The notes under the pieces: generated by a model
What the model saw: the letters and a program-made list of their open reading frames with translations, nothing else
Told to the model about the DNA's origin: nothing
The model's database searches: none
Assembly: GCA_964455675.1 (NCBI GenBank)
Contig: CAYVYK010000008.1
Location: 1-64,000 of the forward strand
Origin: an uncultured Methanosarcinales archaeon
Lineage (GTDB): Archaea; Nanobdellota; Nanobdellia; Woesearchaeales; CAYVYK01
Reading direction: 5' to 3'
DNA: 64,000 bases
Program-made: the position numbers and the translations under genes
Part shown: one piece after another, positions 3,836 to 60,164 of the stretch
Layout: each line of letters begins with the position of its first letter
How positions within the stretch are numbered: position 1 is the stretch's first letter

Positions 3836-4031
3836 GTAGGTATCGACCTATTATGGCTCTTCCCACTGTACGGTATCCTGTATTATAACACTATCGTAGG
3901 ACGATCCACCTCCCTCCGCTAATGATGTCAACTAAGTGCGGTTCACTATCATATTATCAGAGTAGGACGATCCACCTCCCTCCGGTCGGTGGGTCTCGGT
4001 CGGCATCTTCAAGCTGCGCTTGAATGATGCC
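3836..4031 (+). repeat. Dispersed GTAG-repeat/double-hairpin element, copy 1
   Basis: Exact 23-mer GTAGGACGATCCACCTCCCTCCG at 3896 and 3962, with a degenerate unit at 3836. Hairpins CCACC..GGTGG and GGCATCTTCAAGC-TGC-GCTTGAA-T-GATGCC. Confidence 0.85.
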
Positions 4032-4114
4032 TCTGTGGCGATTGATTGAATGATCTCCCTCTACTGAGTGTGGCTTTTCGGATCTGGAGGATTGCTGCAA
4101 ATGAGGTTCTCGAT

Positions 4115-21699: not shown

Positions 21700-21736
21700 A
21701 TTAGACTCTCTTTTTTCAATTTATATGAATAGACCA

Positions 21737-22020
21737 AGGTCCGTCTCTTGCCGGTTGATTCACTTACTCCAATGGAGAATCAACGAATATAGGAGAAGAG
21801 GACACCTCCCGTTGGCAGAACAATAATGACGGATGCTCATGATAGTATCGCAGGACGGGCAGCCTCCCATCGATAGAATTTCCGATAGATGATTCATGAT
21901 AATAGAGTGGGACGGACAGCCTCCCTTCGGTCGGCTGGCAGCGGACGCCATCTTCAAGCGTGCGCTTGAATGATGGCTATGCTGGGCGTGAATGTGCATT
22001 TGCTTTCTGCTGGGCGTGAA
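21737..22020 (+). repeat. Dispersed repeat/double-hairpin element, copy 2
   Basis: Units ending CCTCCC at 21810, 21868 and 21925 (period 57-58). Hairpins CAGCC..GGCTG and GCCATCTTCAAGC-GTGC-GCTTGAA-T-GATGGC. Downstream 13-nt direct repeat TGCTGGGCGTGAA. Confidence 0.88.
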
Positions 22021-22090
22021 GGAATGGCTGGGGACGTTCCACAAGGCATGACCTAAAGCTTTATAAAGCACTTCAAAATCCTTGATACCA

Positions 22091-28793: not shown

Positions 28794-28936
28794 AAGTATT
28801 ACCTTTTTTTCTTTTTACCCTTGATTTTTCGGGACTCTTTTTCTTTTTAGTTTCACATAAGAAATGGCTTGATTTCTATGGCTTCCCATTGGCCTGCAGA
28901 TATTCTTTGCGTATGGTGCAATTACCGTAACATCGG

Positions 28937-29142
28937 AGGATGATCAACTTCCTTCAGTCGCTTGCTCGTTCACTTCGTTCTGCATTATTCTGCATTATCA
29001 TACCCATACCACTTGAGTAGGACGGTCGGCCTTAGGTCGGAATAAACAGACTCGATATCTCTATCATAACCCAGTAGGACGGTCAGCCTTCCTCCGGTCG
29101 GCCTTGAACAGTCGGCATCTTAAGGCTTCGCCTTAATGATGC
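28937..29142 (+). repeat. Dispersed repeat/double-hairpin element, copy 3
   Basis: AGTAGGACGGTCRGCCTT at 29016 and 29073 (period 57), degenerate unit at 28937. Hairpin GCATC-TTAAGGC-TTC-GCCTTAA-T-GATGC. Confidence 0.85.
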
Positions 29143-29258
29143 ACTTGCTTGATGCCTTTGCTGCACGTATATGGATAACGTTTGCTTGCGGTTCGTCATT
29201 GGCCGTACTTTTTTATGGAGCCACAAGGTATATAAAGGCCCGGCAAAACCACACGCAC

Positions 29259-29388: not shown

Positions 29389-30285
29389 GTGGAACAAGCC
29401 GAAGTGGAAGAAAAGCTCAAGAACATGAGCCCTGAAGAGCTTCTTACATACAAGAAGCAGAATTGCATCTTCTGCTACATCGCTAGCGGCAAAGTACCTG
29501 CAAAGAAAGTCTACGAGGACGACAAGGTCTACGCAATCCTTGACAAGAATCCCGCTGCCGAGGGACATATCCTCCTTCTCCCAAAAGAGCATCATGAGGT
29601 CATGCCCCAGGTACCTGCTGATATCCAGGAACATCTTTTTATCGTCGCAAAATCAATATCGCAAGCGCAACTTGCCGCATTCCAAGCAAAAGGAGTAACA
29701 CTCTTTATCGCGAACGGCGGATCCGCAGGGCAGCGCGCACATCACTTCATGATCCACCTTATCCCAAGAAAGGAAGGGGATACAGTTGGCCTCAAGCTCA
29801 AACAAAACACCATGACTGAAGGAATTTTGCGGCAGGTGATCGAACGGCTCGCACCCAAAGTAAAAGAAGTCCTGGGATACGAACGAGCGCATGAACTTGC
29901 CAAGGAATCTGAAAAACAACTGCCTCCAAAAACCAAGGCACCGAAGGAGGCAACCCTGGAACCAGCCGAAGAAACTGAAAACGAGGAAGGGGAGAATGCA
30001 TCGCAAGAAGATACCACGGAAGATGATAGCTTAGAGGCCGTAACATCCGAGGCCACGGAAGAGAAGGAAGAAGCCCGTGAGGACGAAGAACCGCGCGAGG
30101 AAGACACCTCGGAAGATACTGAAGCAAGCGATGCGGACGAAGATTCGGACAAGAACGAGGAGTCTTCGGACCAGCCTGACGACACAGAAGATTCAGAGCA
30201 TGAGAAAAAAACTCGAAAACACGACGAGGATGACGATGAAGACGTACCGCTCGATGCGATTTCCGACATCGCCAAGGGGTGGTAA
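29389..30285 (+). CDS. HIT-family protein with degenerate triad and long acidic tail
   Basis: CIFC.I, GHILLLPKEH, HFMIHLIPR; D/E-rich C-terminus. Confidence 0.85.
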   Translation: MEQAEVEEKLKNMSPEELLTYKKQNCIFCYIASGKVPAKKVYEDDKVYAILDKNPAAEGHILLLPKEHHEVMPQVPADIQEHLFIVAKSISQAQLAAFQAKGVTLFIANGGSAGQRAHHFMIHLIPRKEGDTVGLKLKQNTMTEGILRQVIERLAPKVKEVLGYERAHELAKESEKQLPPKTKAPKEATLEPAEETENEEGENASQEDTTEDDSLEAVTSEATEEKEEAREDEEPREEDTSEDTEASDADEDSDKNEESSDQPDDTEDSEHEKKTRKHDEDDDEDVPLDAISDIAKGW

Positions 30286-30287
30286 GG

Positions 30288-30815
30288 ATGACGGACTGCC
30301 AAATTTGCGCGATGGCCGACCCCCGAAACGAACACATCATCTATGAGGATGACAGCTATTTTGCCATGCTCCACCCGCTGCCGCAGACAGCTGGGCATAT
30401 CGTCGTCGTACCAAAACAACACCTCCCGATCATGGAACAGCTCTCAAGCGAACAGGTAGCGCATGGATTCATGATTGCAAACAAGGTCTCATCAATCCTA
30501 TTTGACAGCCTCCCCATTAGCGGAACAAACATCCTAGTACAAAACGGAACAAGCGCGGGGCAGGAGCAACCCCATTTCATGATCCATGTCATCCCGCGCG
30601 TTGAGAATGATGGGATAGAACTCCAGTGGAAACCACAAGAAGCGACTGAAGAATCACTCTCCACCGCCGAAGCGAAACTCAAACAATACACCCGGAACAT
30701 CGGCGTTAGTAAAAAGGAAGAAAAGAAAGTTGTCGAGCACAAGGAACGCGTTACATCGATCAGCACGGAGGAAGCCGATGATTACCGACTACGGCAATTA
30801 CGAAGGCTTCCCTAA
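30288..30815 (+). CDS. HIT-family protein with degenerate triad
   Basis: CQIC, GHIVVVPK.H, AGQ..PHFMIHVIPR. Confidence 0.85.
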   Translation: MTDCQICAMADPRNEHIIYEDDSYFAMLHPLPQTAGHIVVVPKQHLPIMEQLSSEQVAHGFMIANKVSSILFDSLPISGTNILVQNGTSAGQEQPHFMIHVIPRVENDGIELQWKPQEATEESLSTAEAKLKQYTRNIGVSKKEEKKVVEHKERVTSISTEEADDYRLRQLRRLP

Positions 30816-33573: not shown

Positions 33574-33693
33574 TGTTTATACCAAATGAGTGTTGTCAAA
33601 AGTAATGTTACTCACGGTAATACCATGGGTCATTGTACATCATCTTGAGCGCGCGATGAGCACAATCTCCATAATGCTAGAGCAGGTGATAGA

Positions 33694-33830
33694 GCAGGAC
33701 GGTCAGCCTCCCGTTGGCAGAACAATAATAAAGGATTCTCATGATACTATCGCAGGACGGTCAGCCTCCCTTCGGTCGGCAGGCAGCGGACGCCATCTTC
33801 AAGCGTGCGCTTGAATGATGGCTCTGCTGC
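33694..33830 (+). repeat. Dispersed repeat/double-hairpin element, copy 4
   Basis: Exact GCAGGACGGTCAGCCTCCC at 33694 and 33752 (period 58). Long hairpin GCAGCGGA-C-GCCATCTTCAAGC-GTGC-GCTTGAA-T-GATGGC-TCTGCTGC. Confidence 0.9.
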
Positions 33831-34025
33831 GCGTGGTTGAACAGTTGCGGTCTGCTGGGTGTGATTGACCTGGCTACAGTTGTTGTCTCGTAATTGACCG
33901 TCTCAGAATCAGTACCTACTTCCAAATACCTGTCTCCAACGAGCACCCATCCCCATTGATCGTTCTCTGTTGCTGGCAGGTGAAAAGATTTATAAAGAGC
34001 CTGGAACCCCTTCAAGGTACCTATG

Positions 34026-43162: not shown

Positions 43163-46100
43163 TCAAGGGTTTGTACCATGAGGCACACCCTTGATGGAAA
43201 CGCTGTTATTATACGTACCAGCGGGCTGGGACGCGGGAATTGAAAGGAAAAACTTGAAGTAAACATACGAACTTGTAGGAAGGTCGTCCCCAACCAGTAC
43301 ATAGGATGTAGTGAGGGGTATCTTACTAGCATTGCTGACATTTGGATTCGTGGTGCTCACACTAAAGGATTCATTTGAGAGCCGAATGTAATCCTCATCA
43401 GGCGTTGAAAGATTGGACAATCCCTTGATATAGACATCGACCCCAACACCCGTCGTCTGGATGGCAACATCATACCCTGTGGGAGCCGTACCATTATTGC
43501 CAAGAGCAGAAGCGTTCACTACAGGAATACTTGCGATACTCCAGGTGATACCCGAGCCAAGAGCATCGGAGAGCGAAATGCTAATCGCCTGTTCCGTGTC
43601 AATCGAGAAGTTTCTCACCGCAGATGATGAGTAATTGATAGTATCATTAGCCAGCACCTTCCAGAAATAGGTCATGTTATCCGCAAGCGGAGCCAGGATT
43701 GTATAATTGTGAGTAGTGATATTGTTCCTGCTGAAATTATACCAGGCGAAGGAGGCAGAAGTTGACAATAGCAAGGTGTAGTTGACACTATCGCCATCGC
43801 TATCCACAACGGATGACCAGTTGAGGAAAGGGGTCGTATCACCAGCTACAAATCCCGCGGAAGGCGAGAACAGGGTTACAATCGGAGGAGGAGTATTGAT
43901 CGTGAAGGTCCTCGTTACGGAGGTATTTGTGTGATTCATGACGTCCCAGCAGGACACATTCCAGTGCCAAGTGCCACGAGCAAGCAGATTGATCGTCATG
44001 TTCCTCCAAGACGCATTTGTGACCTCAAGATTTGTCGCGTTCCTTGAGCCATTCAGAGTTAGGTTGCACGTCAGGGGTGAGGAGAAGTCATCAGTCACCG
44101 ACCAGTTGAACGTGACGTTCCGAATGAGGATTTTGGATGATAATGGCGAATTCAGCTCGATCTTCGGTGCGGTCACATCCGGCTCACTCGTCGTAAATGA
44201 CCATTGGGAGGAAGTGTTCACATTGCCTGCAGCATCCCAACATGAAACTTTCCAGGTGTGCGTTCCAGTCAGGAATCCAGACACTGAGAAATTCCTCCAG
44301 GAATCATTCGTTGCTGCAATATTTGATGCATTTACGACGCCATCGATCGTCAGATTACAGGTTTGCATTGCTTCCACACTATCTACCAGGGTCCAATTGA
44401 AGAGCATGGACGCTGTATACCATCTCGAATCGTTTGAAGGGCTGACAAGCTCGAGATTTGGGGCGACGGTGTCAATCGTCACCTCACGCAGAGCTGTCTG
44501 GTTCATATTAGCACCCTCATCAACGATGAAGGACTGGAACGTATGTACACCCTCATCCAAGGAGGAATAGTTATTCCTGAATCTACCGGCTGAAGCGTCG
44601 TAGAGCGCTTGAACTTCAAAGGCAGAAAGGGTTCGATTCATGATGATCAACTCATCAATCGTCCCATTCCACAAAAAGTTCGTCGTGCTATACGCTCCGA
44701 TCTTGCTCGTCTTACGGTCGACAGCGATGCTCGTTTGAATAGATTTCGTCTCATTCAGAGCACCGTTAATATACAGTTTCACAGACTTATTCGTGTAATT
44801 ATGCGCCAAAGAGATCAAGTACCATCTGTCCTTCCCCAGGTTAGTGTTGAAGCTTGTGGACTGAGCTGCTGTACCATTGGTCCACTGCCACCAAACATCA
44901 CCATTAAGGAGATAGAACCAATGATACCCAACCGTATTGGACTGGGTACCAAGAGTGTAGACCGTACGGTACGACGTGATATTCCTAGCAAAGACCCAAC
45001 CGCTCACGCTGATCGCGCTGCTTGTGGAACTATTGCTCGCGATATTTACATAGCTATTTGTGAGTCCACTGAAGGAGAAAGCATTCCCAAACTTCCCAGT
45101 GCTACCAGCAGTGACTGTGCCAACAACGGATCCATTGCGACCATTACCAGACCAGTCATATATGCGTGTCGCGTTCTCTCCTGCGCTCGCTTTATTATCA
45201 AATCTCCACCATCCGACGAGCGAGTTGTCAAAGTTGGTTAAGCCGTACATTCTGCTTGCGTCTGTTGCGGTTACGTTAACCTCGATGTGGTTGCGACTCC
45301 TGGTTGAGGCATTAGATGGAGTGAGGCCAGTATAATCGATATGCGGACCCAAAGTGTCATTCACCGTAAATGTTGTCGATGCAGTGTTGATGTTGCCTGC
45401 AGTATCGTTCGCCCAGATGTTCATTGTGTACGCGCCAAACGCAGTGATATTGGTTAGCGTAGAGAGGTTGAGATCACCAGATGCAGATGTTCGACTGAGG
45501 AGGAGAGAATTATTCGGGTATGTCACATTAAAATTTACCACAGATAATGCAGCATCTGTTGCGGACCAGTTGATGCGAAGGCTTCTTTCATACTCCACCC
45601 ACGATAGATTCTTTCCCAAGAGGACAAGGGGGAGCGATGCGTCAAGTGTTACCTCCCACTCCTCAGTTTGGTTTCTATTGCCCGCCGCATCCACCGCATA
45701 GCTTCTGAAGGTGTGAATTGTACTCGAGAGACCGCTTATGTTAGCCTGGAATCTACCTTCGCTTGCATCATACAATGCCCCGATCTCATCAGCGGTAAGT
45801 GATCGGTTGAGCACGACCACTTCATCGATCGCACCGTTGAAATCATACTCGCGCACGGTCTCAGATATGTAGTAGTGAGTCGCTCCAATGGTAAAGTTCG
45901 AGCCATTCGTCGGGAGAATGGCTCCACTTGACACGTTGAGATTATCAAGTGTGCCGTTGATGTACAACATGATCATTGTTCCATTATAAACAGCCGCGAA
46001 ATGATACCACTTGCTAAGATCAGCGGCACCAAACGTTTTAGTGCTGTACACCTCCTTTGTTGTTGGCCCCGCAATACTGAAATGGAGTCTTCGCCCGCTT

Positions 46101-49100
46101 CGGCTTGTAGTCGTTAAACTTGAGTTTACAATTTGCACCTGCCAAAGACTCGATGATAAACCAAATTGACCAGAGAAAAAACCGAAATCACCAGGACCTA
46201 CTGATCCACTATTGTCCATCTCCATGCGGGGGTACGGCGCCGGGAATGTGTGTCCAAAATATTTCGCCAGAATCCCCTGGTCCATGGCGTCTACTGTTCC
46301 GTCCTCATTAAGATCCGAAGCAAGTGACTTTCCATTGCGTACGAGAGGGAAATAATACCTTCCTACACTATCAAGTCGGAACCATCCTGCGATCGTGATT
46401 GTTCCAGTCATATCCATGGTTTCCCCGGTTATCCCCTCGAGATAGTCCTCTGTACCGTCAAAGTCGTATGCGCCACCGAACCTCCCACTCGTCAGCAGGG
46501 TTGGATTTCCCTGCACCGTGAGATTGTTACCCATGCCGCTCCAATCAAATATCCGTGTCGTATTCTCACCAGCACTCGCGTCATTATCCATACTATACCA
46601 TCCGATAAGACTGTTGTCCAGGTTGGTGAATCCATACACAGCACTTGCATCGTTCACGCTTACGTTGGTGTACACCCAATCTTGATTGTGAGTTGTTCCG
46701 TTTGATGGAGTGATCCCTGAATAACTGATGGCAGGGCTAATCGTATCATTCACTGTGAATACTGCACTTGACGTGTTCACATGACTGACAGAATCATTCG
46801 CCCAGATGTTCATCGTGTACGTGCCGAGAATTGTGATATTATTAATCGTCGAAAGATTAAGGCTTCCTGACGAAGAAGTCCGACTGATGAAGAGGGATCC
46901 ATTAGGCCACGTGATATTGAACTTTGTCACGGATAACGAGACATCGGACGCAGTCCAGTTGAGGCGGATGGACCTTCCATACTCCACGAGCGAAAGATTC
47001 TGACCAATAACCAGTTTTGGCGCGATGGAATCAACAAGGTACGATACGTTCCGAACAGTGCTCTTGTTCTGCAGATCCCACATACTGCACCGCACGTACT
47101 CAGTTCCCTCAGAGGAGGACGCTGAAAACGAACAGGTCGCACTGTAGGGCGAAGGCCTATCAGCAAAGTTACCGCTTGTGCAGATAGTTTTGCTCATGTT
47201 CGGTGTGCACGAATTGGTCGTACCCTTGCAGCAGAGCATCTGCAGGATGTCGCCATCAGTATCTCCGGGTGATATGGCAGTAATTGTGACCGCTGAGCCC
47301 GGAGCAGGCGCGGAATCATTCACACTTATTGAAGTGAGCGTGGGCACTGTGTTCGTCGGCAGGACCGGATTGAAACTTCCTGGGAAGAGCGCGATATCGC
47401 ATCCCGTGAATTCAGAGAGGGCAGAGTTGATGTTCACATCCTCAGATACTTTCGTTGGTGTACCCCAGCTCTTCGTCGCATAGGTGAAGGGGATTGTGTA
47501 CAGGTCCACGTCGTCATCATCAACATAACAGAGTAGGGCATTACCCCATGAATCAACCGCAACTGAATACATCGCTCTGGAGTTCACATCAGCTGACGAA
47601 CCAACGTCCACACCCGCACCAGACCAAGATGTACCATCATAATAGGAATACTCAAGATTGTACAAGGAGTCCTCCCAGACGGCCATGCAGGTTCCATTGC
47701 TACCACAGCCGATTGTTGGGCCATTGCTTGAACAGATATTGCCTACAGTATCAAGCGCGGTGATCGTTCCCCAGCCGCGATTCCACTCCCTCACGTACAC
47801 TGGATCTCCCGACGCGGTGTAGTTACTCCATATGAGCCAGGCTTTACCGACGTCATATGCCGCAAGTGTCGGAAAACCAGCAATTCCTGTCCCAGGGTGC
47901 GAGAGCGTAATCCTTCCACTTTCATTCCAAGCAGCCCCGTTATAATAGAAGTACAGGTAGGAATCTTGATCGGTGTCGTCCTCCCGAACGACCGCGAGCG
48001 CAGTACCATCTCCCAGGTACGTGACCGCCGGAGCAGTATCACCATTTTCTGCGTCGAACGCTGTGGGATTAGTAATCTCGCTAAATGCGCTCCATGTTGC
48101 TCCCTTATCAGTACTGATTGAAGCAAACAGGCCTTCCGTTGCAGTACTTGGACCGACCATGATGGAATTGTTATTATACATATCAACCGCAAGAGATGAG
48201 CTACTCAGGGCAAACGATGTACCATCATCATAATCAACCCACTTACCGCTACTGCCGTTGTAATCCCATTGGTAACCATAGGTATTCGCGTCACCACGTT
48301 TACCTGTGATTATACCCCAACCCCAGGGATTCAGAGCAAGCGAAGGGGAATTAAGATTTGCTTCTTCAGAGTACTTGCTCAGGTTCTTCGTGACAAAATT
48401 ATCTATCCAGGTGGAACCGCTCGTATTCGTAACCGCAAACCGCGGCATATAACGGCCAGTAGAATAATTATTCGGGCTGTTGTCATCACTGATCCACGCG
48501 ACCATGGCCTTATTAATGGTTGTATTACCCAGGGGAGTATAATTTCCTAGAGGTATGGAGGGATCAATGATGTAGTCCAACTCCACTGTACCATTGACCC
48601 GCAAATCAAATACCGCATGGCTCTCAGTCGAGGGCATCCCTTCCAAAAACATTTTATACGTCCCGGGCGCGGTTATGCTCTCAAATTCGGCAAATTCGGC
48701 ACTTTGATCTTCTGCAAAAACAGTAATTGACGCCGTTGCGTTACTTCGCGCAACAAGAGTGATATCGTTCGTTTTGGTCAGATTGCGCTCAAATGTGATC
48801 CGTACATACTCACCATCATGGATAATTGGGCTCCAATTACCGTCCTGTGCAAATACATAACCATAGATATCCTGAATGAATGTCCTATTGCTATTGAGGT
48901 GTGCAGCTTGGGTGATTTCAATGATCACCTCATACGTCTGATTTGATAAGTGAGGCACGATCCACTCAACTGTGTCAATGATACCGTTGCTATTGGAATC
49001 AGTATACGTGATATCTTGCAGTTTCAAACGATAGAAGCCATTGTCCAACTCGACCGTATCAAACCCATCGGGCGTTTCGATCATCACTTCCCCCTCAAAT

Positions 49101-50833
49101 TGACCGGTGAATTCCCGATACTCTTGCTCGTTCAGGATCCAGTACACGCCAACCTGCTCATTCGTCTCCCTTGGCAGACTCGTGTGCGCAACAATGTTCT
49201 CATACCTGATATCTGAGAAGATCACAACCTCCTTTTTCTCGAGGGACAGATTGCGCTCAACACTCTCAGGGCCTTTGGTAGTGAAGTTAATCTCAATCGA
49301 GATGTTGCCGAGGGATTCATTCGACAGATTCATACCGGATGTAACGTTCTGAATTAGAATAGGTAATTCATCAGGGAGCATGTCTAGCCGACGTTCACGC
49401 ACCATGTCCCGCTGCATATTTCTAAGATCATTCTTCAACTCCCTGATCTCGTTCTGAAGATTTTTCTTGTCCTGTTTTGAGGCGGAAGCAAGCTGAACCT
49501 GCAGGTCAGTTAGCTCTTTAAGGGCTGGTTTTGCATCGATGGAATACCAGGAATCATTACTTAACACCAAAATATGCTTATTTTCTATCGCCTGTTTCAA
49601 ACCAACAGATCTTTTGCTCGCGGAAATATTCGTTGCCGAGATCGGGAGAGCTATCTCAATCGTCTCATTTCTCGTATGAATCGTTTTCTTCCAGTGGACC
49701 GGTTTATGAAGCTTGACCGCAGAGAGCAACTTCACACCATCGTTTGACTCATTACTCGTGACGCTAAGGTTTTCCGTCGCAATGGCAATGCCTTCATATT
49801 CATTTAGGAAAATGGGGACCGTTATTTGTACCGTATACTCTGCATCTGACGCAAAGAGAGTTATCTCATCCACTCTCGAGTCACTCCCAAGATACCTAAT
49901 CAGCAAACGATCACGGAAGACATCAACATACGTTTCCATCGGCTGGGTTGCCAGGAACGTCAGATTATCATGCTCAGGATCGAGAGCATAGCTTGACAGG
50001 TTCATGGTCAGGTTACCAGTCACAGTAATATTTGTCAGATTACTCCAGACTGGAGGATCATTCACCAGAACCTCGGTATACAAAACTTCATTAAGATACA
50101 GAACGGATGAGGGTCCAAGATGCACACGAAGGGAATACTCGCCACCGGATAAACTCAGCGCGCAAGAATCTCTGCAAACAGCCCTGAATTCCAGCGGAAC
50201 CTCAATACCAGGTTCTGAAACCAAGATTGGATTTTGTTGTGGATCCGCTGGCTCCGGGTTGATGGTCTCCTCGGGATTCTCAGTGCTTGTGGGAATTACC
50301 TCTGGAGGGGGCACTACCTCTGAGGGAATCTCCAAAGGCTCGGATACTACTTGAGTAGATTCGGGAACTGAAAGAGCAGGTTCCATTGATGGCTCTTTAG
50401 ACGGTTCCTGCATATTTTCTGGAACACTTGGTTCGCGAGGCTCAATCGTAGATTCATCGATATTTGGAATATCAAAAGACTCCTCACTATTGCTAGAGTC
50501 TGGTAAGTCTGCAATAGCGAGAGCCACTACTTCTGGTTCATTCGACTCTTGCCCGGACGTCGAGAACACCAAGAATTCCTGATCACCGCTCAAGAGATAC
50601 ACATCCCCTTGCCCGATGATGCTTCCGGAAATACTCAGTGATGATATCGGACCGGATATTGCCAAATCATACGCGCTGTCTTCGGTAAATGTCACATCCA
50701 GCGGTAGCGATATCAATGATTCAGATACAACAAGCCCAGTTAATCCAGACCGTAACACCGATCCACCAAGAATGACCCCAAGGATTATCCCGAGGAGGAA
50801 CAATCGGTAGCGCACAAGCCGAAACTCAGCCAT
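43163..50833 (-). CDS. Giant surface adhesin, 2556 aa (beta-propeller, 2 LamG, Ig repeats, dockerin-like insert, C-terminal pilin-like domain)
   Basis: Asp-box STDKGATW; LamG motifs L.GW..D, G.FG.A..F, W.H..., FNG.IDE; many N-X-S/T sequons. Confidence 0.85.
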   Translation of the reverse strand: MAEFRLVRYRLFLLGIILGVILGGSVLRSGLTGLVVSESLISLPLDVTFTEDSAYDLAISGPISSLSISGSIIGQGDVYLLSGDQEFLVFSTSGQESNEPEVVALAIADLPDSSNSEESFDIPNIDESTIEPREPSVPENMQEPSKEPSMEPALSVPESTQVVSEPLEIPSEVVPPPEVIPTSTENPEETINPEPADPQQNPILVSEPGIEVPLEFRAVCRDSCALSLSGGEYSLRVHLGPSSVLYLNEVLYTEVLVNDPPVWSNLTNITVTGNLTMNLSSYALDPEHDNLTFLATQPMETYVDVFRDRLLIRYLGSDSRVDEITLFASDAEYTVQITVPIFLNEYEGIAIATENLSVTSNESNDGVKLLSAVKLHKPVHWKKTIHTRNETIEIALPISATNISASKRSVGLKQAIENKHILVLSNDSWYSIDAKPALKELTDLQVQLASASKQDKKNLQNEIRELKNDLRNMQRDMVRERRLDMLPDELPILIQNVTSGMNLSNESLGNISIEINFTTKGPESVERNLSLEKKEVVIFSDIRYENIVAHTSLPRETNEQVGVYWILNEQEYREFTGQFEGEVMIETPDGFDTVELDNGFYRLKLQDITYTDSNSNGIIDTVEWIVPHLSNQTYEVIIEITQAAHLNSNRTFIQDIYGYVFAQDGNWSPIIHDGEYVRITFERNLTKTNDITLVARSNATASITVFAEDQSAEFAEFESITAPGTYKMFLEGMPSTESHAVFDLRVNGTVELDYIIDPSIPLGNYTPLGNTTINKAMVAWISDDNSPNNYSTGRYMPRFAVTNTSGSTWIDNFVTKNLSKYSEEANLNSPSLALNPWGWGIITGKRGDANTYGYQWDYNGSSGKWVDYDDGTSFALSSSSLAVDMYNNNSIMVGPSTATEGLFASISTDKGATWSAFSEITNPTAFDAENGDTAPAVTYLGDGTALAVVREDDTDQDSYLYFYYNGAAWNESGRITLSHPGTGIAGFPTLAAYDVGKAWLIWSNYTASGDPVYVREWNRGWGTITALDTVGNICSSNGPTIGCGSNGTCMAVWEDSLYNLEYSYYDGTSWSGAGVDVGSSADVNSRAMYSVAVDSWGNALLCYVDDDDVDLYTIPFTYATKSWGTPTKVSEDVNINSALSEFTGCDIALFPGSFNPVLPTNTVPTLTSISVNDSAPAPGSAVTITAISPGDTDGDILQMLCCKGTTNSCTPNMSKTICTSGNFADRPSPYSATCSFSASSSEGTEYVRCSMWDLQNKSTVRNVSYLVDSIAPKLVIGQNLSLVEYGRSIRLNWTASDVSLSVTKFNITWPNGSLFISRTSSSGSLNLSTINNITILGTYTMNIWANDSVSHVNTSSAVFTVNDTISPAISYSGITPSNGTTHNQDWVYTNVSVNDASAVYGFTNLDNSLIGWYSMDNDASAGENTTRIFDWSGMGNNLTVQGNPTLLTSGRFGGAYDFDGTEDYLEGITGETMDMTGTITIAGWFRLDSVGRYYFPLVRNGKSLASDLNEDGTVDAMDQGILAKYFGHTFPAPYPRMEMDNSGSVGPGDFGFFSGQFGLSSSLWQVQIVNSSLTTTSRSGRRLHFSIAGPTTKEVYSTKTFGAADLSKWYHFAAVYNGTMIMLYINGTLDNLNVSSGAILPTNGSNFTIGATHYYISETVREYDFNGAIDEVVVLNRSLTADEIGALYDASEGRFQANISGLSSTIHTFRSYAVDAAGNRNQTEEWEVTLDASLPLVLLGKNLSWVEYERSLRINWSATDAALSVVNFNVTYPNNSLLLSRTSASGDLNLSTLTNITAFGAYTMNIWANDTAGNINTASTTFTVNDTLGPHIDYTGLTPSNASTRSRNHIEVNVTATDASRMYGLTNFDNSLVGWWRFDNKASAGENATRIYDWSGNGRNGSVVGTVTAGSTGKFGNAFSFSGLTNSYVNIASNSSTSSAISVSGWVFARNITSYRTVYTLGTQSNTVGYHWFYLLNGDVWWQWTNGTAAQSTSFNTNLGKDRWYLISLAHNYTNKSVKLYINGALNETKSIQTSIAVDRKTSKIGAYSTTNFLWNGTIDELIIMNRTLSAFEVQALYDASAGRFRNNYSSLDEGVHTFQSFIVDEGANMNQTALREVTIDTVAPNLELVSPSNDSRWYTASMLFNWTLVDSVEAMQTCNLTIDGVVNASNIAATNDSWRNFSVSGFLTGTHTWKVSCWDAAGNVNTSSQWSFTTSEPDVTAPKIELNSPLSSKILIRNVTFNWSVTDDFSSPLTCNLTLNGSRNATNLEVTNASWRNMTINLLARGTWHWNVSCWDVMNHTNTSVTRTFTINTPPPIVTLFSPSAGFVAGDTTPFLNWSSVVDSDGDSVNYTLLLSTSASFAWYNFSRNNITTHNYTILAPLADNMTYFWKVLANDTINYSSSAVRNFSIDTEQAISISLSDALGSGITWSIASIPVVNASALGNNGTAPTGYDVAIQTTGVGVDVYIKGLSNLSTPDEDYIRLSNESFSVSTTNPNVSNASKIPLTTSYVLVGDDLPTSSYVYFKFFLSIPASQPAGTYNNSVSIKGVPHGTNP

Positions 50834-52549: not shown

Positions 52550-55500
52550 TCAGGAAGAAGGCTTCATGTGCTTGTCCAGCTGTTCGTCCGTCCAGCCTGC
52601 CTTCTTCAGCTGCTCACGGATTTTCATTTCTGAGATACCGATTTTCCTCTGCTGCTGCAGGAATTTATGTAACGGATCAAACTGATGGCTGCGCACAATG
52701 AGCAGGGTTATGGATGAGATGATGATAATACCAAACGCAGAGGCCATCAGCAACAGAGGCGTATGGTCTCTCACCACATCAGGGACTTTTGCGAGCTCGA
52801 CGGTTCGGGGGCTTTCCTCACAAGGCTCACATGGACCGCCGCAGTCAATTGTCGTTTCGCCCTCATCAAGAAGACCGTTCCCACAGGAATCCTGTAATTG
52901 TTCCTCTGTGCAATTCTCATGATGGAACTCCTCATCGGAACCAGGTTCACAATGATTCATTTCCGTACAATTCCTTATGCGCGTGCCATTCACGCACTCG
53001 GACCATTCACTGCACGTCCAGTTGAACACGCACGGAGCAATCGTCGGAGTCGGAGGGACCCATCCCATCGCGGCGCCGCCGGACCTGCCACCAGAACCTC
53101 CACCAGGACTTCCACCACCAGGGGAGCCAGTATCACAGGACCCAAAACCTTCATCGATATTGCCGTCACAGTCATCATCAATACTATTGCAGGATTCCTG
53201 ATACAAACCCTGGTAGGAGTACTGATCGCACAGATCAGTGTGGAGTATACAATACTCACTCAGGGACATCGCGAACTCATTACTCTCATCAGTATAGACA
53301 AAGATCCCATGATTTGCGTTAAACCAATAGTCAACATTATCAAACAGTGTTTGTGCGGTCCAAATCGCAGGGCCCGTGCCATCATGATCAAAATCAGTGT
53401 ATTCACAGTAGGTCTCTCCTTCCGTGTCCCCAAGCATGCAATCACTCGATATACGATCAACTCGATAACAGTCCGGATCCGTGGTCCCCCAAATCCCTGC
53501 AACCTCAAAACCGCTCGTGAGGAATGGACCAAGCCGGGACGTACAATCAAAATAGGTGTCCTCGGTGATGAGGTTCTTTCCAAGTTGGTTAAACTCCTGA
53601 TATAGCAAATGAGGATAGTACACAGAAGTATTCATGGCGGGCAGATAGAAACTGGCCGTCCTCACTCCGCGCGTGGCGAGGGCGCCTGCAATCGCCGAAT
53701 GAACACTGTCGTAGATTTCATCGTCCGCATTCCAAATGGTATACCCTACCTTCGATCTGCTATCTGGCGCGTAATCCTCGGCGTCGAGTCCCGTGAGCGG
53801 AACACCAAGCTCGTTTGCCTCCTCGCGCAACCTCCTCAGGAACCACTCATAGTACTCAGCGTCGTGCACAATGCTTCCATCTGTGTACTCATCTTTAAAC
53901 GGCTGAGCGAAAGGCTGAGCGCTCACATTGCCATCCTGGAACCAGAGATCACGCCCCCAGATAGGAATCAATCCAGCATCACGGACTTCCTGAATAATAT
54001 GAGTATTCGGTTCTGAAGTTGGCTGTTCATTATAATCAAGATTACTGATGTAGACGTGGGTAACTAGGCCCGATGCTTTAAGAGAGGGGAAGATACTCGT
54101 GTCCTCACCCCACCGATGCATCCAGATGAAAACCTTCTCCGACGGAACTTGCGCACATGACGGCTCACGAGAACTCAACCCCTCAAGGGTTGTGAAGTTG
54201 TCAACAACGCCCCAGATGACTTCATGTTCAAGCTCCGCACCATTCGATGACCGAATCCTGAATTCGTAGTCGGTGTACTCTGTCAAATTATCAAGCAGCA
54301 AGCGGTGCGAAGTCACGAGCTCGGAACTCGCCACGATTCCATCGGGACCATCAGGGTAGCGCTCGGGATTTGGGGATTCCCACCAATACCCATTCGAGGT
54401 GTACGCAACTTCCGACGTGCTCGGATCAGCGGTAGTCCAGGAGATGTTCACTGCCGTTGAGTTGATGTGGATAACCGCAACATTATCCGGAAGGCGGAAC
54501 CAAGGGGCCTCCCAATCAACGTAGGGGTCAGCCGTGATTTCACCAGCAGCATACCGCGCTTTTACGACGTCATAAAACGGTTTGTACCAAGCCCAGGTAG
54601 CATAGGTTTTATCCACCGAATACACCCATCCATAGAGATTCTCACCAAGCACACGATGCAACTCTTGCCTTGAGATGGCAAGGCTTCGATTCTCTGGCAG
54701 AATCTCGGAACCATACACCTGCGACAATCCATACCCTGATGTGAAGTAACGCACGTAAGGATCATTTGGCGAATCCACCATCGCCATATCACCGGTCTCA
54801 CCGACAAGTGCATAATCAACGTATGCATCAATCATGACCGCCTTGAGTCCATTATATTCTGGATACGTGTCCCAAACATCAACGGACTCATGATGAATAA
54901 TGATCCCCTCATCACCCAGCTCTCTCCTAACTGTCTTAATAAACTCATAATTATCCGCAAGATTCCCAAAGTTGATACCCGCATTATCAAAATACCACCC
55001 GTCGAGGTCGTACTCCTCACGGAATTGCTCCATAACATAGAAGGTATCTGCGAGCGACTGACCAGTCGCGGGATATCCGGGGAATCCATTGCCATCAGGA
55101 TCAAAGCCAGGAGCACCGAAGTACGTAAGCACCTTAAGTCCATTCTCATGCGCAGTAGCGATGAATGCCTTTACCGCGGCAGGATCAGCATACTCATAAC
55201 CATACAGTCCTTCCCTTGCGATCCAAGGACTTACACCACTATCCATGATGGCGGGAAGATGCGAGATGGGTCCAGGCCGATTATAGAATGTACTGAACAG
55301 AAGGACCGCGCCAAAACCCTCATCACGATAACTCTGCATGTTGTCCACGATTCGCTCGAGTCCGTCAGGCGCGTAGGCAAAATACACAAACGGCTTTGTA
55401 TCCTCGCCGTAGAGGCCGTCAAAGTCAAACGGTTTTGGCGGGAAGACCATATGACCCATGCTCATTCCAGGGAAGAATCCAAAGGTTGTGAAGTCAGACG

Positions 55501-58500
55501 TTTGACCAAGCACAAGCGGAGCGCCGCTACTGAACTTTGCATGGAGCGAACCACCCAAACCATCCGTCCACATCCTATTAAGGTTGTCGTCCTCCCTTCT
55601 CCAGGTAGTATCCTCAATCAGATTCGTGTGTGTGTAGCCCATGACATTCAAGGCAGTTATCGAGAAGAAGGAATCGCTAAAAAACCTGAAGTCAGCTAGG
55701 TTCGTATGCACGGAAGCTTCAGAAGAATTCCAATCAGTAATGGATGGATCACCAAGGGGAGCGGTAAAATCGAGCCTGGCAACAAGCCTAGGGTTAATGC
55801 CATTTGTTGAGGGATCAATTTTTCTCCACATCTCCAAATCCGTGCTCGTGAGAACATATGTCGCACCAGTCGTCTCAATTGTTATCTCTCCCGTATCACC
55901 CACAACTGAGACAATCTCCATCCCAGATAGGATTTCATCGCATGGCACAACCGATACTGGCATCCCCGTAGTAGTACCACAGTCATTCTCATCAAACACT
56001 TCCCTCGTCCTTGCGCCTTCACTACAAGAACTCCATTCGCCCATCTGCCAGTCAGGAGCGCACTCACGCTCAACAATGGAAAGCGCATCCATCGGAATTG
56101 ATACTGTTTCTCCATTCCAACCAAATGTTAAACCATTCTGCTCGAAGGGATTATCGATCGCAAACAGAGTCACACCATCATTTGCTATGAAGCGGCGTAC
56201 TTCAACACCATCCGGAATGCTTGTGATACCTCTCGTACTACGATAGATTGGCTCTCTTGCCCACCAGTTGTGGGCAGTACGAAGCTCTATCGCATTGATC
56301 AGGAATTCGTTCGTCACTCCTCCATATGCCACGCCGGGACTATCAAACTTCGCGCCAAGAAGGAACGCCTGACGCTCAGCAAAATGATTATGAGCAGCGC
56401 CATAAAGATCGTACTCACCATTCTGATAGCCATAGAAGAGAATACGATCCCCAAGGAGGTATCTCCCAAAATCTGCCACGGTGATCCTGTCTGAATTCTC
56501 GACGGTATGACCTTCCTCCATCGCGATACTCCCACCACGAATGTTACCGCTGATCAGGAAGGCAGCCGGATAGACATCTTTTGCAAACTCAAGGACGGAC
56601 ATTCCTGGAAGCTGTGCCTTGATGATATTCGCGATGTCAAGTGGCGGACCAAAGTTCCTCGCCCCGAGCACATCGAGGTAGTACGCATTCGCGCCGTTTG
56701 CGGTGTGAACTGCAATCCACCCGATCAAGTACTCGAGCGGCGTTTCACTTTCGGCATCCCAATCGTCATACTCAGTCGTGTCCGTCAACTCATGATACTC
56801 ACCCCAGGAGTAGTGATTCAGCGGGCGGCTGTAGAAGCCAACAGTTGCTCCTTGAGCTTTGATAGCATCAATGTATGCAGGAAGATCAGCATAACGCGGA
56901 TGCAAGGTACGCTCGCCAAAACAACACCCCAGCCATTCACCCACCTCGAGCGGGGGAGTGCCTTCATAATCATCAGCAGGAGGAGTGATCCCATTCCATG
57001 GAACGTAGTCAAGGAAGTTCACAGGCTCAACTTGCCCATAATTACTCATCTGACCCCAGAACTGCAGCCAGGGAAGATAGTCCTTTGAAGACTGCCAATG
57101 AGAGTCGATCTCGGTTGTCGTGAACGCTGGTCGGTTCTGGAGATGGATCGCAAGCCATCCATTCGCAGACTTCAAGGAATCAGGATACTCTATAGGAAGA
57201 AGACCCTCAGAGGACATATGATCTCTCAGCCACGCATCGTACACATCGAGCGCCGCATGCCAAGGCTTGATGCCCTGCTCAGCATTACCCGCAACTTCCG
57301 CAATAAATGCATTGTACGTCTCAGATTCTCCGGGAAGCACGGCATCCTCATAGAGCAGACGCGACCTCTTAAAGCACGCCATTGGCTTTACCGTCCTTGG
57401 CGGCCAATTCGCGGCAGCCACGAGTTTTGCCTTCGTATCATCAGCAACAACATGCAGCGGAGCATACGTTACGTTCGGATACACCAAACCAGACCAGCCC
57501 CATGTTGTGACATCAAAAGTCGTCATCAATCGCGCAGTACCAAAAAGGTAGGTATCATAGAGCGTGTCATCCTCGGTTACTGAATCAAGCATATATTTGT
57601 AATACTCAAAAGGAAAATCAACACCCGTGATCGTCAGGCTCGGATGGATGTTCTGCAGCGTCAGAGACCACTCGTACTCACCCACCTGCTCGACCGTGGC
57701 GTCAATATAGGAATCATGATACGTGCGCACGGGACCTGGATTACCCGCGCTGTTCAGATAGTACACATGATTACCGTCGCTCAAGCGGATGTGAAAGGCT
57801 GGACCATACTCATCATAAGGATCCAATGGGAAGGAATCAACACCATCGGACCTCGCGTCATCGTCGGAATCAGCATCAAGAGGATCAGAATCAGCGTAAT
57901 ACTCCTCCAGGTTTACCAGCCTGTCACCATCAGGATCATCCTCGGCATCATAACTTGTGATTGCATCAAAGTGGTCCAACTCCCAGCTGTCGGGCAGACC
58001 ATCACCATCGGTATCACACGAAATAGGACAACTACCACCGCAGTCAATACCTTCCTCATCGCCGTCCTGGATGCCGTTGTTACAGTTTCCGTCCTCAGCG
58101 CTTAGATATTCAAACGCCCCAACGTCAGGCGCAGCACCATACCACTCCTTACAGTCCTCGCCTGGATGGGAACCAGCGGACTCGCAATGGTAACCGGCGA
58201 TAAACGAACCTGCATCAATCGCAGCGCTGCCAGAAGTGAGATGATAATCATTCAATCCGAGATCCACAAATCCAGGATCAGCAGAAAAAGTACTGCCATC
58301 AAGGAGAGGAACAGAACCATCATTCACCTCTGCGTTCGTGTAATGAAGACCATCATTCCAGTGGATGACCGGATCCAGCTCACGAAAGAGGATGTTGTTG
58401 CCTTCATCGACATACACGCATTCCGCAGTCGGACTTGGGCACGCTTGCGGACTCGTTGTCAAGGCACGATGCTCATTCTCGGGACCATAGATGGCATAGT

Positions 58501-60004
58501 TGTCAGGAAACGCACTCACAATACTATCAAAGTACATCGTACTGCCTTCTTCACCACCTTGATTCGACGCAAGCCACATGTTGATCTTGCCACCAACGAT
58601 CGTGGAATGCGAGATGTGAGCCTCACCTGGGACACCAATGTCGTTATCACCATGCCGAACATTCAGCGTCATCGCGCCAAGAGGACAGTCATACAACACA
58701 AGTCCACGAACATAAAAAGGACCACTCCACATCTTGAACCCAGCGCCAGCACCGTAGTCATAACCGATGGTGTAGATTGTAGCATCCTCAACCGTGATGT
58801 TGTACGGCCCAGCATTCGTCAGGTCAAGACCTTCACCGGTATCATGGATGGTCACGTTCTTAATGAAGAGGCCAGTCACTTCACCTGTTGGAGTCGTCTC
58901 AATTCCAGCCTGCTCCATATTTGAGATGATTACGTTCCTCACCGTCACGTTCGGACACCCACGGTCAATCCCGATACCATGCCTGCCAATGCCCCCACCA
59001 TCAATCACCACATTCTCGATAATCGCCCTCCATGATTCAACAAGCCGAATACCGTCCTTACCATACCCAGGATCAGGAGCGATGCTGCTTGGCGAATGGA
59101 TGTACAAATTCCGCAGAAGCTGATCAGATCTAACGCCCCAATTATCCAGGATGGCGGGTTCAATGTACCCAGTGATTTCAAAACCATCCACGGTCCACAT
59201 GGACGACTCCAGCTGAATTATTGGCTCTTTTATTACAGAGTCATAATGAATGTGTGGGCTCTCGCCAGGATAGCTCATCAGCACCTTCCTCTCAATTTCT
59301 GATCCTGCGAGGTGCAACGGAGTGCTTAATGTGTATAAACCGTCCCTGACTTGAATGATAACGCCCGGAGAGATACTGCTCACAGCTTCCCCGATTGTAT
59401 TGTATGAATCACCATCCGAACCCGAACAGTCGCGGGCTGCAATGGAATACGATCCAGCACAGTCCTGACCTGGAGCCTGATCAACAAAGATCGCATCACA
59501 CTCCACAGGGCAGGATCCACCGCAATCAACACCGTACTCATCGCCATCCTGGACGCCGTTTGAGCACGAGGGATCGCCGAGAATAAAGAATGACTCATCT
59601 GACCCATCGGGTTCATCATCCCTCAGTTCGCTGACTCCCCCAACCGACAAACCTGGATCCGCATCATCCAAGCGCGGAACGGGTTGAAACCACGCATTCT
59701 CACGAGTTGAGAACGCAAATGGTGAACTCAAAGGGTCAACATCAGGTTCCCCTACTCCACAGGAACGGAGTGTGGGAGGAGGCTCAACACCTCCGCAACG
59801 GTTCAGATCCTCGCAGATACGCGTTTCCCGATCGCTCGAGCACAAACTCCAAGCGGTACAGCGCCATTCCGGCATACAATCCTGAATACCTATGGCGAAT
59901 ACATCCTTGACATTCGCACCACTCACAGAATCTGGGATACCGCTCGCGATACAACAGAGTAGAATCACCACTAGACCGATTACAGTCCTTTTCCCAACTC
60001 CCAT
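52550..60004 (-). CDS. Giant modular surface protein, about 2484 aa (beta-helix, putative glycoside-hydrolase-like domains, FN3-like, Cys-rich repeats, C-terminal TM)
   Basis: Signal peptide; beta-helix repeats and DYHL...S.AIDAG; DTDGDG repeats; YYLD, GWYFD and GLDAE catalytic-looking strands; TM plus LKKAGW tail. Confidence 0.8.
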   Translation of the reverse strand: MGVGKRTVIGLVVILLCCIASGIPDSVSGANVKDVFAIGIQDCMPEWRCTAWSLCSSDRETRICEDLNRCGGVEPPPTLRSCGVGEPDVDPLSSPFAFSTRENAWFQPVPRLDDADPGLSVGGVSELRDDEPDGSDESFFILGDPSCSNGVQDGDEYGVDCGGSCPVECDAIFVDQAPGQDCAGSYSIAARDCSGSDGDSYNTIGEAVSSISPGVIIQVRDGLYTLSTPLHLAGSEIERKVLMSYPGESPHIHYDSVIKEPIIQLESSMWTVDGFEITGYIEPAILDNWGVRSDQLLRNLYIHSPSSIAPDPGYGKDGIRLVESWRAIIENVVIDGGGIGRHGIGIDRGCPNVTVRNVIISNMEQAGIETTPTGEVTGLFIKNVTIHDTGEGLDLTNAGPYNITVEDATIYTIGYDYGAGAGFKMWSGPFYVRGLVLYDCPLGAMTLNVRHGDNDIGVPGEAHISHSTIVGGKINMWLASNQGGEEGSTMYFDSIVSAFPDNYAIYGPENEHRALTTSPQACPSPTAECVYVDEGNNILFRELDPVIHWNDGLHYTNAEVNDGSVPLLDGSTFSADPGFVDLGLNDYHLTSGSAAIDAGSFIAGYHCESAGSHPGEDCKEWYGAAPDVGAFEYLSAEDGNCNNGIQDGDEEGIDCGGSCPISCDTDGDGLPDSWELDHFDAITSYDAEDDPDGDRLVNLEEYYADSDPLDADSDDDARSDGVDSFPLDPYDEYGPAFHIRLSDGNHVYYLNSAGNPGPVRTYHDSYIDATVEQVGEYEWSLTLQNIHPSLTITGVDFPFEYYKYMLDSVTEDDTLYDTYLFGTARLMTTFDVTTWGWSGLVYPNVTYAPLHVVADDTKAKLVAAANWPPRTVKPMACFKRSRLLYEDAVLPGESETYNAFIAEVAGNAEQGIKPWHAALDVYDAWLRDHMSSEGLLPIEYPDSLKSANGWLAIHLQNRPAFTTTEIDSHWQSSKDYLPWLQFWGQMSNYGQVEPVNFLDYVPWNGITPPADDYEGTPPLEVGEWLGCCFGERTLHPRYADLPAYIDAIKAQGATVGFYSRPLNHYSWGEYHELTDTTEYDDWDAESETPLEYLIGWIAVHTANGANAYYLDVLGARNFGPPLDIANIIKAQLPGMSVLEFAKDVYPAAFLISGNIRGGSIAMEEGHTVENSDRITVADFGRYLLGDRILFYGYQNGEYDLYGAAHNHFAERQAFLLGAKFDSPGVAYGGVTNEFLINAIELRTAHNWWAREPIYRSTRGITSIPDGVEVRRFIANDGVTLFAIDNPFEQNGLTFGWNGETVSIPMDALSIVERECAPDWQMGEWSSCSEGARTREVFDENDCGTTTGMPVSVVPCDEILSGMEIVSVVGDTGEITIETTGATYVLTSTDLEMWRKIDPSTNGINPRLVARLDFTAPLGDPSITDWNSSEASVHTNLADFRFFSDSFFSITALNVMGYTHTNLIEDTTWRREDDNLNRMWTDGLGGSLHAKFSSGAPLVLGQTSDFTTFGFFPGMSMGHMVFPPKPFDFDGLYGEDTKPFVYFAYAPDGLERIVDNMQSYRDEGFGAVLLFSTFYNRPGPISHLPAIMDSGVSPWIAREGLYGYEYADPAAVKAFIATAHENGLKVLTYFGAPGFDPDGNGFPGYPATGQSLADTFYVMEQFREEYDLDGWYFDNAGINFGNLADNYEFIKTVRRELGDEGIIIHHESVDVWDTYPEYNGLKAVMIDAYVDYALVGETGDMAMVDSPNDPYVRYFTSGYGLSQVYGSEILPENRSLAISRQELHRVLGENLYGWVYSVDKTYATWAWYKPFYDVVKARYAAGEITADPYVDWEAPWFRLPDNVAVIHINSTAVNISWTTADPSTSEVAYTSNGYWWESPNPERYPDGPDGIVASSELVTSHRLLLDNLTEYTDYEFRIRSSNGAELEHEVIWGVVDNFTTLEGLSSREPSCAQVPSEKVFIWMHRWGEDTSIFPSLKASGLVTHVYISNLDYNEQPTSEPNTHIIQEVRDAGLIPIWGRDLWFQDGNVSAQPFAQPFKDEYTDGSIVHDAEYYEWFLRRLREEANELGVPLTGLDAEDYAPDSRSKVGYTIWNADDEIYDSVHSAIAGALATRGVRTASFYLPAMNTSVYYPHLLYQEFNQLGKNLITEDTYFDCTSRLGPFLTSGFEVAGIWGTTDPDCYRVDRISSDCMLGDTEGETYCEYTDFDHDGTGPAIWTAQTLFDNVDYWFNANHGIFVYTDESNEFAMSLSEYCILHTDLCDQYSYQGLYQESCNSIDDDCDGNIDEGFGSCDTGSPGGGSPGGGSGGRSGGAAMGWVPPTPTIAPCVFNWTCSEWSECVNGTRIRNCTEMNHCEPGSDEEFHHENCTEEQLQDSCGNGLLDEGETTIDCGGPCEPCEESPRTVELAKVPDVVRDHTPLLLMASAFGIIIISSITLLIVRSHQFDPLHKFLQQQRKIGISEMKIREQLKKAGWTDEQLDKHMKPSS

Positions 60005-60164
60005 CACGAGGAAAGTACCCGCATTGGTATATAAATAAGATTCCTCACAGCAGAGTGAATACCTACGCGTACCACAGATGAATCTCGATAGACGGATAGT
60101 GAATACAAAATACCGGATTAACAACTCCGCAAATTTATATACAAGAAACCACTGAAGTATCGAT

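Follow-up and report, generated by a model that had tools for sequence, protein, structure and literature searches.

Pneumococcal BOX (A-B(n)-C), ERIC/IRU and Correia/NEMIS elements are structured repeats of modular build that lie between genes and may act as RNA, and DPANN archaea such as Woesearchaeota are uncultured, with a non-coding DNA that is almost uncharted. REPs, as presented in an excerpted account (PMC3733652), are single palindromes of 20-40 bp with GTAG at the stem end, often found as inverted pairs, in genomes that carry a RAYT gene. IS200/IS605 elements, according to the excerpted text of a second source (PMC5027513), insert in the lagging-strand-template orientation, and an extrahelical T confers their strand specificity. 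Here we describe, from one archaeal genome, a new and lineage-restricted family of structured dispersed intergenic repeats. Literature searches on DPANN intergenic hairpin repeats and on Woesearchaeota MITEs yielded, at the level of titles and abstracts, no account of such repeats.

The window, that is the whole stretch of 64,000 nt that was analysed, contains four loci of this family, which are present as the initial annotation had described them and whose cores, delimited with a covariance model (R1), are all on the + strand. Each locus combines one complete core with upstream half-units, and the features are the following:

3880..3918, + strand: locus 1 half-unit (TCATnATA..GTAGGACGATCCACCTCCC..) without the 3' arm of hairpin 1; partial nhmmer match, model positions 9-47, E=0.001
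3957..4039, + strand: locus 1 complete core with junction helix, hairpin 1 and hairpin 2; R1 93.1 bits, E=1.2e-17
21720..21727, + strand: TATA-like box that follows the spt5 stop codon and a T-run and precedes the locus 2 array; identified by eye, it may be a promoter from which the element is transcribed in the sense direction
21797-21822 (approximate), + strand: more degenerate half-unit of locus 2, from sequence reading
21832..21873, + strand: locus 2 half-unit; partial nhmmer match, E=1.6e-4
21902..21985, + strand: locus 2 complete core, between spt5 and rpl11; R1 96 bits, neighbours by Pfam
21986..22022, + strand: two 3' modules of locus 2 (TGCTGGGCGTGAA.. twice), from the alignment of three near-identical blocks
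22060-22067: second TATA-like box, that of L11 itself, identified by eye
28918-28964, + strand: weaker half-unit of locus 3, E=0.14
28998..29040, + strand: locus 3 half-unit; partial nhmmer match, E=0.008
29069..29151, + strand: locus 3 complete core, upstream of a HIT-domain gene; R1 76 bits, gene by Pfam
33687..33717, + strand: locus 4 half-unit; partial nhmmer match, E=5.7e-4
33747..33830, + strand: locus 4 complete core, upstream of the L7Ae gene; R1 95.9 bits, gene by Pfam
33831..33870, + strand: two 3' modules of locus 4, from the block alignment

The window also carries two giant ORFs, both on the - strand, at 43163-50833 (2556 aa) and 52550-60124 (2524 aa).

An nhmmer profile was built from 21 pattern-picked copies and led to R1, which was made from 26 aligned copies. 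The scan of the whole source genome (1.72 Mb in 25 contigs, assembly completeness 99.0%) with R1 showed 29 strong copies, with scores of 64-105 bits, and one weak match of 31.6 bits; the initial count of four copies in 64 kb is correct for the window but not for the genome, where many further copies exist. Each whole copy measures about 150-300 nt. The copies are unevenly distributed, with eight of them within 45 kb on contig C4 and five within 70 kb on contig C8, and the large contigs C3, C7 and C10 have none. The source DNA was found in only two public runs, both of sludge-metagenome DNA and from one study.

Scans with R1 of other genomes of this order, first 40 and then 150, representing at least 135 families, gave no copy; the source genome is the sole member of its family among the genomes compared. 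The element matches no Rfam family: with release 15, the window at the gathering threshold gave only tRNA, and so did 20 loci containing more than 20 copies at E<=0.1. A pattern scan of 185,579 species genomes returned 27 single chance matches in unrelated bacteria, and the same kind of scan of JGI metagenomes returned one match, which the model rejected. In the IMG/VR viral contigs the unit had no match, and the 25 matches to the hairpin 2 pattern scored at most 17.7 bits, compared with 64-105 bits for true copies. A blastn comparison with plasmids and phages left the element without match. An rRNA origin of the element was considered and dropped, the 16S gene and its flanks having been searched and found to hold no copy.

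The conserved core has 84 nt and consists of a GGACG/CGGAC junction, a 5-bp hairpin 1 with a CUCCC loop and a 13-bp hairpin 2 with a bulged U. At its 5' side, TCATnATAnnATC is followed by G(T/C)AG and then by GGACGGTC. The middle three letters of the hairpin 1 stem are variable (AGC, CAC, CGG, GGC, GGG or CTG); its loop reads TCCC-NYYG-GTC, is of the UUCG/UCCG type in several copies, and precedes the return arm and GGnnn-CGGACG. Hairpin 2 reads G[G/C]CATCTT-nnnGC ... GCnnn-AA-T-GATG[C/G]C, with an invariant extra T that lies bulged within an invariant stretch of the 26-copy alignment, and is followed by CTTTGC. The GGAC/GGTC motifs are also invariant among copies, and the conservation runs past the core on both sides, with TCATnATAnnATC upstream and CTTTGCTGCGCGTGATTGAACGT, sometimes twice, downstream. 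The units had been annotated as led by GTAG, a description that applies to a part of them only: among the 26 aligned copies the leading tetranucleotide is GTAG in 15, GCAG in five, GGAG in three, and GTCG, GGTG and GTGG in one each, and it is set apart from the foot of the hairpin by the six nucleotides GACGGT.

Both hairpins covary, as had been proposed. In the 26 copies, standard pairs occupy 95.6% of 591 helix cells, compared with 84.1 ± 0.9% in shuffled alignments, both sides have changed in 9 of the 23 pairs, and none of 500 shuffles reached the observed covariation score. When the partners were slid by 1-3 columns, pairing was only 18-47%. The hairpins are maintained through compensatory changes, and these results together with the 29 strong copies bear out the view of a dispersed, non-coding element family built on a single plan. 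The two hairpins would be joined by a third small helix, GGACG/CGGAC, with tandem central G.A/A.G, according to RNAalifold; since GGACG/CGGAC exhibits no compensatory change, this junction helix is a prediction only. A fold suggested two further pairings, one of long range between GGACGG and the downstream GWCCGTCT, the other of CGGA with UUUG so as to lengthen hairpin 2; both were rejected, since inspection by eye revealed no compensatory change. Readings of the core as a C/D-box, a K-turn, a BHB or a tRNA-like structure were likewise dropped by eye, the box or pairing rules being unmet. No open reading frame runs across the copies, all six frames having stops in 12-24 of the 26. Among the 325 pairs of cores, identity is 60-99% and its median 78%, which indicates that the family is old and that its helices were kept through divergence; only one pair, two complete tandem copies on contig C2, reaches an identity of 95% or more.

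Upstream of 20 of the 29 cores lie 3'-truncated half-units, 24 in all at E<=0.1 and one or two at each of these 20, which retain 5' motif, first stem arm and loop and break off at ..GGTC(G/A). All 24 are on the strand of their core and within 330 nt upstream of it, none being solitary or downstream; some arrays exhibit, by eye, one more and degenerate unit. The repeat period of the arrays is 54-74 nt, and the spacing of 57-66 nt given for the window in the initial annotation was reproduced. The linkers have an A-rich start (AAAGAAG-like) and end in TCATnATAnnATC, so that a half-unit and its linker are inherited together as one module. The stem letters of the core usually recur in the adjacent unit, and neighbouring linkers are near-identical; the arrays grow through local tandem duplication, which changes the number of half-units. 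Downstream of the core there are one or two TGCTGCGCGTGATTGAACGT-like modules.

At a larger scale, a block of about 195 nt is common to three loci (21.9 kb and 33.7 kb in the window, and C1:89.8 kb) whose flanks are unrelated. It starts a few bases ahead of the first half-unit and reaches the second 3' module; in the alignment of C8:21902, C1:89815 and locus 4 it ends with ..GTGATTGACC. Blocks of this size have been copied as wholes into unrelated sites. The three block ends that can be compared lack terminal inverted repeats, a target duplication and a common flank motif. One copy, C1:89815-89947 on the - strand, is disrupted by a 50-nt AT-rich insertion in the 5' arm of hairpin 2. Runs of N, which are scaffold gaps, occur inside half-unit arrays at C14:15258-15500 and C14:35800-36000, and public unitigs end at cores in the window (21946/21949, 29113 and 33762/33798), forming repeat-induced joints at copies. 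As repeats break assemblies, the array lengths may be understated.

The spacers described as variable in the initial annotation are not unique, since they recur within arrays and between loci, for example at window loci 2 and 4 and at C1:89815. This result bears directly on the proposal that the copies are CRISPR-like or guide-RNA mini-arrays with unique guides, served by a nuclease encoded elsewhere. The period of 54-74 nt does resemble that of CRISPR arrays and the last repeat is joined to a structured tail, but the linkers are duplicated within arrays and common to several loci, the repeats within one array differ from each other, and the genome has no Cas1 or TnpB gene and no CRISPR-like array. 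We consider the guide proposal extremely unlikely.

The genes that neighbour the copies are varied housekeeping genes, among them those for L11, L7Ae, S19e, FtsZ, triose-phosphate isomerase (TIM), phosphotransacetylase (PTA), Tyw1, Lgt and PurD, together with genes for glycosyltransferases and for Rad50-like, NUDIX and HIT proteins; no mobile-element transposase or nuclease was found among them. All four gene arrangements occur around the copies. Gene calls from a crude ORF caller put a divergent gene upstream of the element in 18 of 29 cases; downstream, about 16 of 28 genes run in the element's direction and 12 converge on it. At 9 loci or more the downstream gene has, by eye, its own TATA-like box between the element and the start codon, so that the element is not the leader of those genes. 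A TATA-like box was also seen by eye upstream of some arrays, even between co-directional genes (spt5-L11 and PMT-L7Ae), and others have none.

Another reading is a portable cassette, a promoter or 5' leader by which the downstream gene would be driven or regulated. All four window copies do lie upstream of + strand genes, and a CCACAAG-TATA-like motif follows three copies; the genome-wide figures for the downstream genes, with some 16 of 28 on the element's strand and 12 converging by the crude ORF caller, their own TATA boxes placed after the element at 9 or more loci, and an orientation that tracks strand composition and not gene direction argue against a cassette of this kind, which we regard as very unlikely. 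In the tests made, neither the orientation nor the placement of the element was tied to neighbouring genes.

The spt5-L11 site was compared among 19 relative loci, with both genes aligned in 12. The spacer measures 391 nt here, and the gap between aligned ends is 18-144 nt in 9 of these 12 relatives; because the Spt5 alignment stops about 20 residues before the end of the protein, the true spacers in relatives are shorter still. The other three relatives have gaps of 204, 305 and 796 nt, and the two that were inspected hold unrelated sequence. The comparison of filled and empty sites showed, then, an element that fills a spacer which is short in most relatives.

The element adjoins three of the four loci that carry the genome's five HIT-domain genes. 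The positions concerned are:

4115-4543 of the window, - strand
29389-30285 of the window, + strand
30279-30815 of the window, + strand
C2:141162-141611, + strand

Locus 1 is also flanked by a NUDIX gene. In the HIT protein encoded at 29389-30285 (+), HxMxH replaces the HxHxH triad and an acidic low-complexity tail of about 170 residues is present; its tandem neighbour at 30279-30815 has the same HxMxH change. The HIT paralogs are only 26-32% identical and relatives without the element carry 2-8 HIT genes, so that the adjacency may be due to chance or to permissive spacers; on the same grounds the idea of a HIT enzyme dedicated to the element was dropped.

We found that the orientation of the copies is locked to the strand-composition asymmetry of the chromosome. 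Every contig exhibits a uniform GC skew of about ±0.03-0.10 with an AT skew of opposite sign, and the strand on which GGACGG comes first is the locally C-rich strand in 27 of the 29 copies (binomial p=1.6e-6). On contigs of positive skew all 10 copies are on the - strand, on contigs of negative skew 17 of 19 are on the + strand, and counted by contig the rule holds for 10 of 11. The controls have no such bias: 566 of 1099 ORFs of at least 150 aa (51.5%) and 16 of 28 tRNA genes are on the G-rich strand, and the short motifs of the element, outside the copies, exhibit no strand skew. G/T-rich 8-mers were observed with up to 95% on one strand of a contig.

In most prokaryotes the skew reflects the direction of replication, with the G-rich strand as the leading strand, and we infer that this applies here. 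With the single 16S gene the assignment agrees, since that gene is on the G-rich strand; the polarity of the skew could not be anchored, because the only Orc1/Cdc6 gene (C1:172057-172341) lies on a contig without skew switch. An orientation that follows strand bias would tie the element to DNA replication and not to neighbouring genes, and it agrees with the mobile-element reading of the initial annotation in that the orientation of single-strand (HUH) elements tracks strand composition in the same way. Both exceptions to the rule, C4:78534 and C24:134, have a second conserved non-coding module, family B, directly downstream. Family B stands directly downstream of four to five element copies, at these positions:

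C4:78204-78459, - strand: family B
C4:93269-93379, + strand: family B
C24:1-74, continuing into C19:30465-30687, - strand: family B
C6:2250-2338, + strand: family B
near C2:141650-141720: weaker relative of family B

It begins with ..TTCCACAACGCGGGGGTGGTGG and closes with ..CCACCAC, occurs in forms of about 95 nt (the conserved stretch being nearly identical in three copies) and about 62 nt, and has no match in Rfam at E<=0.1.

The reading that we prefer, at a probability of roughly 0.4, is that of a lineage-specific, replication-coupled structured repeat with REP/PATE-like behaviour and no known enzyme. Single-stranded DNA at the replication fork would be the form in which the element is made or spread, one of its strands folding there into the two hairpins, and the invariant bulged T of hairpin 2 together with the conserved loop might serve as strand-specific recognition points for a protein. 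It could then be a non-autonomous element whose folded single strand is the substrate for recognition and copying, in the manner of IS200/IS605-type elements and REPs, with arrays that would be reshaped by local duplication and an enzyme that is not encoded in the assembly and might have been lost. The data show the structure, the number of copies, the copying of blocks, the filling of a spacer and the rule of orientation; the single-strand intermediate, the recognition role of the bulged T and loop and the link between skew and fork are what this reading presumes.

Some results count against a mobile element of this type. The assembly has no recognisable transposase gene, and the three block ends that were compared have no terminal inverted repeats, target duplication or shared target motif. 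Within the 99.0%-complete assembly we found no Y1 (PF01797), TnpB (PF07282), RVT_1, Cas1, DDE_Tnp_1 or rve domain, and only one tyrosine recombinase. The PF01797 search gave no match at E<=0.01 in this assembly, its control being positive in 6 of 14 genomes, so the search for a Y1/RAYT gene proposed by the initial annotation was carried out and no such gene came to light; the control of the Y2_Tnp search matched nowhere, which makes the Y2_Tnp outcome uninformative. Multi-copy insertion sequences are often lost from binned assemblies, and the absence of an enzyme therefore holds for the assembly and may not extend to the organism. In addition, a median identity of 78% with a single pair of 325 at 95% or above fits long maintenance better than recent bursts.

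A further reading is a cis-acting DNA signal of the host that would depend on fork direction, such as a protein-bound polar pause or barrier site or a strand-specific hairpin on one of the template strands, with selection keeping one orientation per replichore. The strong orientation bias where genes show none, the age and sequence constraint of the copies with their invariant GGAC/GGTC, the lack of a mobility gene in the genome, and the occurrence of copies on contigs of both skew signs (10 on positive ones, all -; 19 on negative ones, 17 of them +) speak for a host signal. But the copies are clustered on C4 and C8 and absent from the large contigs C3, C7 and C10, the variable half-unit arrays are left unaccounted for, and we know of no comparable structured polar site in archaea. 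The element is also absent from the 150 other genomes of the order and so cannot be a general part of their replication. We regard a polar host signal as unlikely. Improbable, too, is the most far-reaching reading, of a structured element whose orientation is locked to the direction of the fork in an archaeon without any recognisable transposase. The family would then be either the first single-strand, fork-coupled mobile element to be served by a new enzyme (non-HUH or unrecognised), or a polar signal of the chromosome that the host maintains, a strand-specific hairpin site with an effect on the synthesis of the lagging strand or on the progress of the fork.

The close rival of the replication-coupled repeat is a small-RNA family, which we hold to be possible though doubtful. 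About 30 small structured RNA genes or modules would be transcribed from the GGACGG-first strand, and each would expose one to three CUCCC motifs, single-stranded or in a loop, that are complementary to Shine-Dalgarno-like GGAG/GGGAG; the RNAs would act in trans, either on mRNAs or on a binding protein. The C-rich-loop sRNAs of staphylococci act comparably in trans. Loops and junctions are constant alongside covarying helices, the family is old and retains its structure, and the hairpin 1 loops of several copies are of the UUCG/UCCG type mentioned above. Folded as RNA, the GGACG-first strand is more stable than the complementary strand in 22 of 28 cores and in 22 of 26 extended copies; for the extended copies the mean difference between sense and antisense folds is 7.4 kcal/mol (p=2e-4), and with DNA parameters no difference was found for the core. 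TATA-like boxes, placed by eye upstream of arrays even between co-directional genes, while downstream genes have boxes of their own at 9 or more loci, speak for an RNA too, and the genes of this genome use GGAGG-type ribosome-binding sites, the 16S rRNA ending in ..GATCACCTCCT.

On the other side, the conserved unit contains neither a promoter nor a terminator, and among the 591 helix cells G.U (6) is not above A.C (7). The orientation bias of 27 of 29 has no parallel in the tRNA or protein genes, and, should the G-rich strand be the leading one, sense transcripts would meet replication head-on. The copy with the 50-nt insertion in hairpin 2 also argues against a conserved RNA. Under the preferred reading of a replication-coupled repeat, transcripts of the element may still exist and matter.

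The family offers a countable case, with 29 copies and a firm covariation signal, in a group of archaea of this kind. What stands out is a strict polarity, apparently linked to replication, in a genome without recognisable transposases; if the skew does reflect replication, the orientation of the element reports the direction of replication far better than the genes or tRNAs of the same genome, and the copies could serve in practice as a replichore marker for scaffolding such MAGs. Single-strand mobility, if true, would extend fork-coupled transposition to a lineage without known enzyme for it, and a host signal or an sRNA family, if true, would add a new regulatory layer to a minimal genome.

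Compared with REPs and BIMEs, to which the initial annotation had likened the family, the element is similarly abundant, intergenic, hairpin-forming, gene-less and arrayed with variable linkers; many of its copies have G(T/C)AG just 5' of the conserved sequence, and both probably act as single strands. It differs from them in its 84-nt two-hairpin core, which is not a short palindrome, in a GTAG that is found in no more than 15 of 26 copies, six nucleotides away from the stem and not at its foot, and in its 24 partial units, which are all direct whereas BIME units alternate (inverted). Its genome has no Y1 gene, and the host is an archaeon whereas REPs are bacterial. Membership in the REP/RAYT group was for these reasons abandoned. 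From CRISPR arrays the element is distinguished by duplicated linkers and the lack of Cas1. With GTAG variable and off the stem foot, spacers duplicated and no Y1, RAYT, TnpB or Cas1 gene, it is therefore neither a REP nor a guide array. The defining features of MITEs, terminal inverted repeats and target-site duplication, were not found at the three near-identical block ends.

With BOX, ERIC/IRU and Correia/NEMIS elements, as they are generally described, the family has in common a mosaic build, variable tandem sub-units, stable folds, an intergenic location and no transposase of its own; it differs in having no sequence relation to them (no Rfam match), and to our knowledge no replication-linked orientation has been described for these elements. 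The comparison with IS200/IS605 and PATE elements is more divided. The assembly has no TnpA (Y1) or TnpB, the two hairpins of the element are unlike each other and are internal and adjacent instead of standing at two ends, and the block ends, of which only three are comparable, showed no conserved target tetranucleotide or duplication. In addition, the strand with the bulged T lies on the C-rich strand, which would not be the lagging-strand template in case the G-rich strand leads. Yet the element shares with IS200/IS605 and PATE an orientation bias relative to replication, 27 of 29 copies following the GC skew here and the identity of the lagging-strand template being presumed from that skew, as well as an extrahelical T in the hairpins, a possible source of strand specificity.
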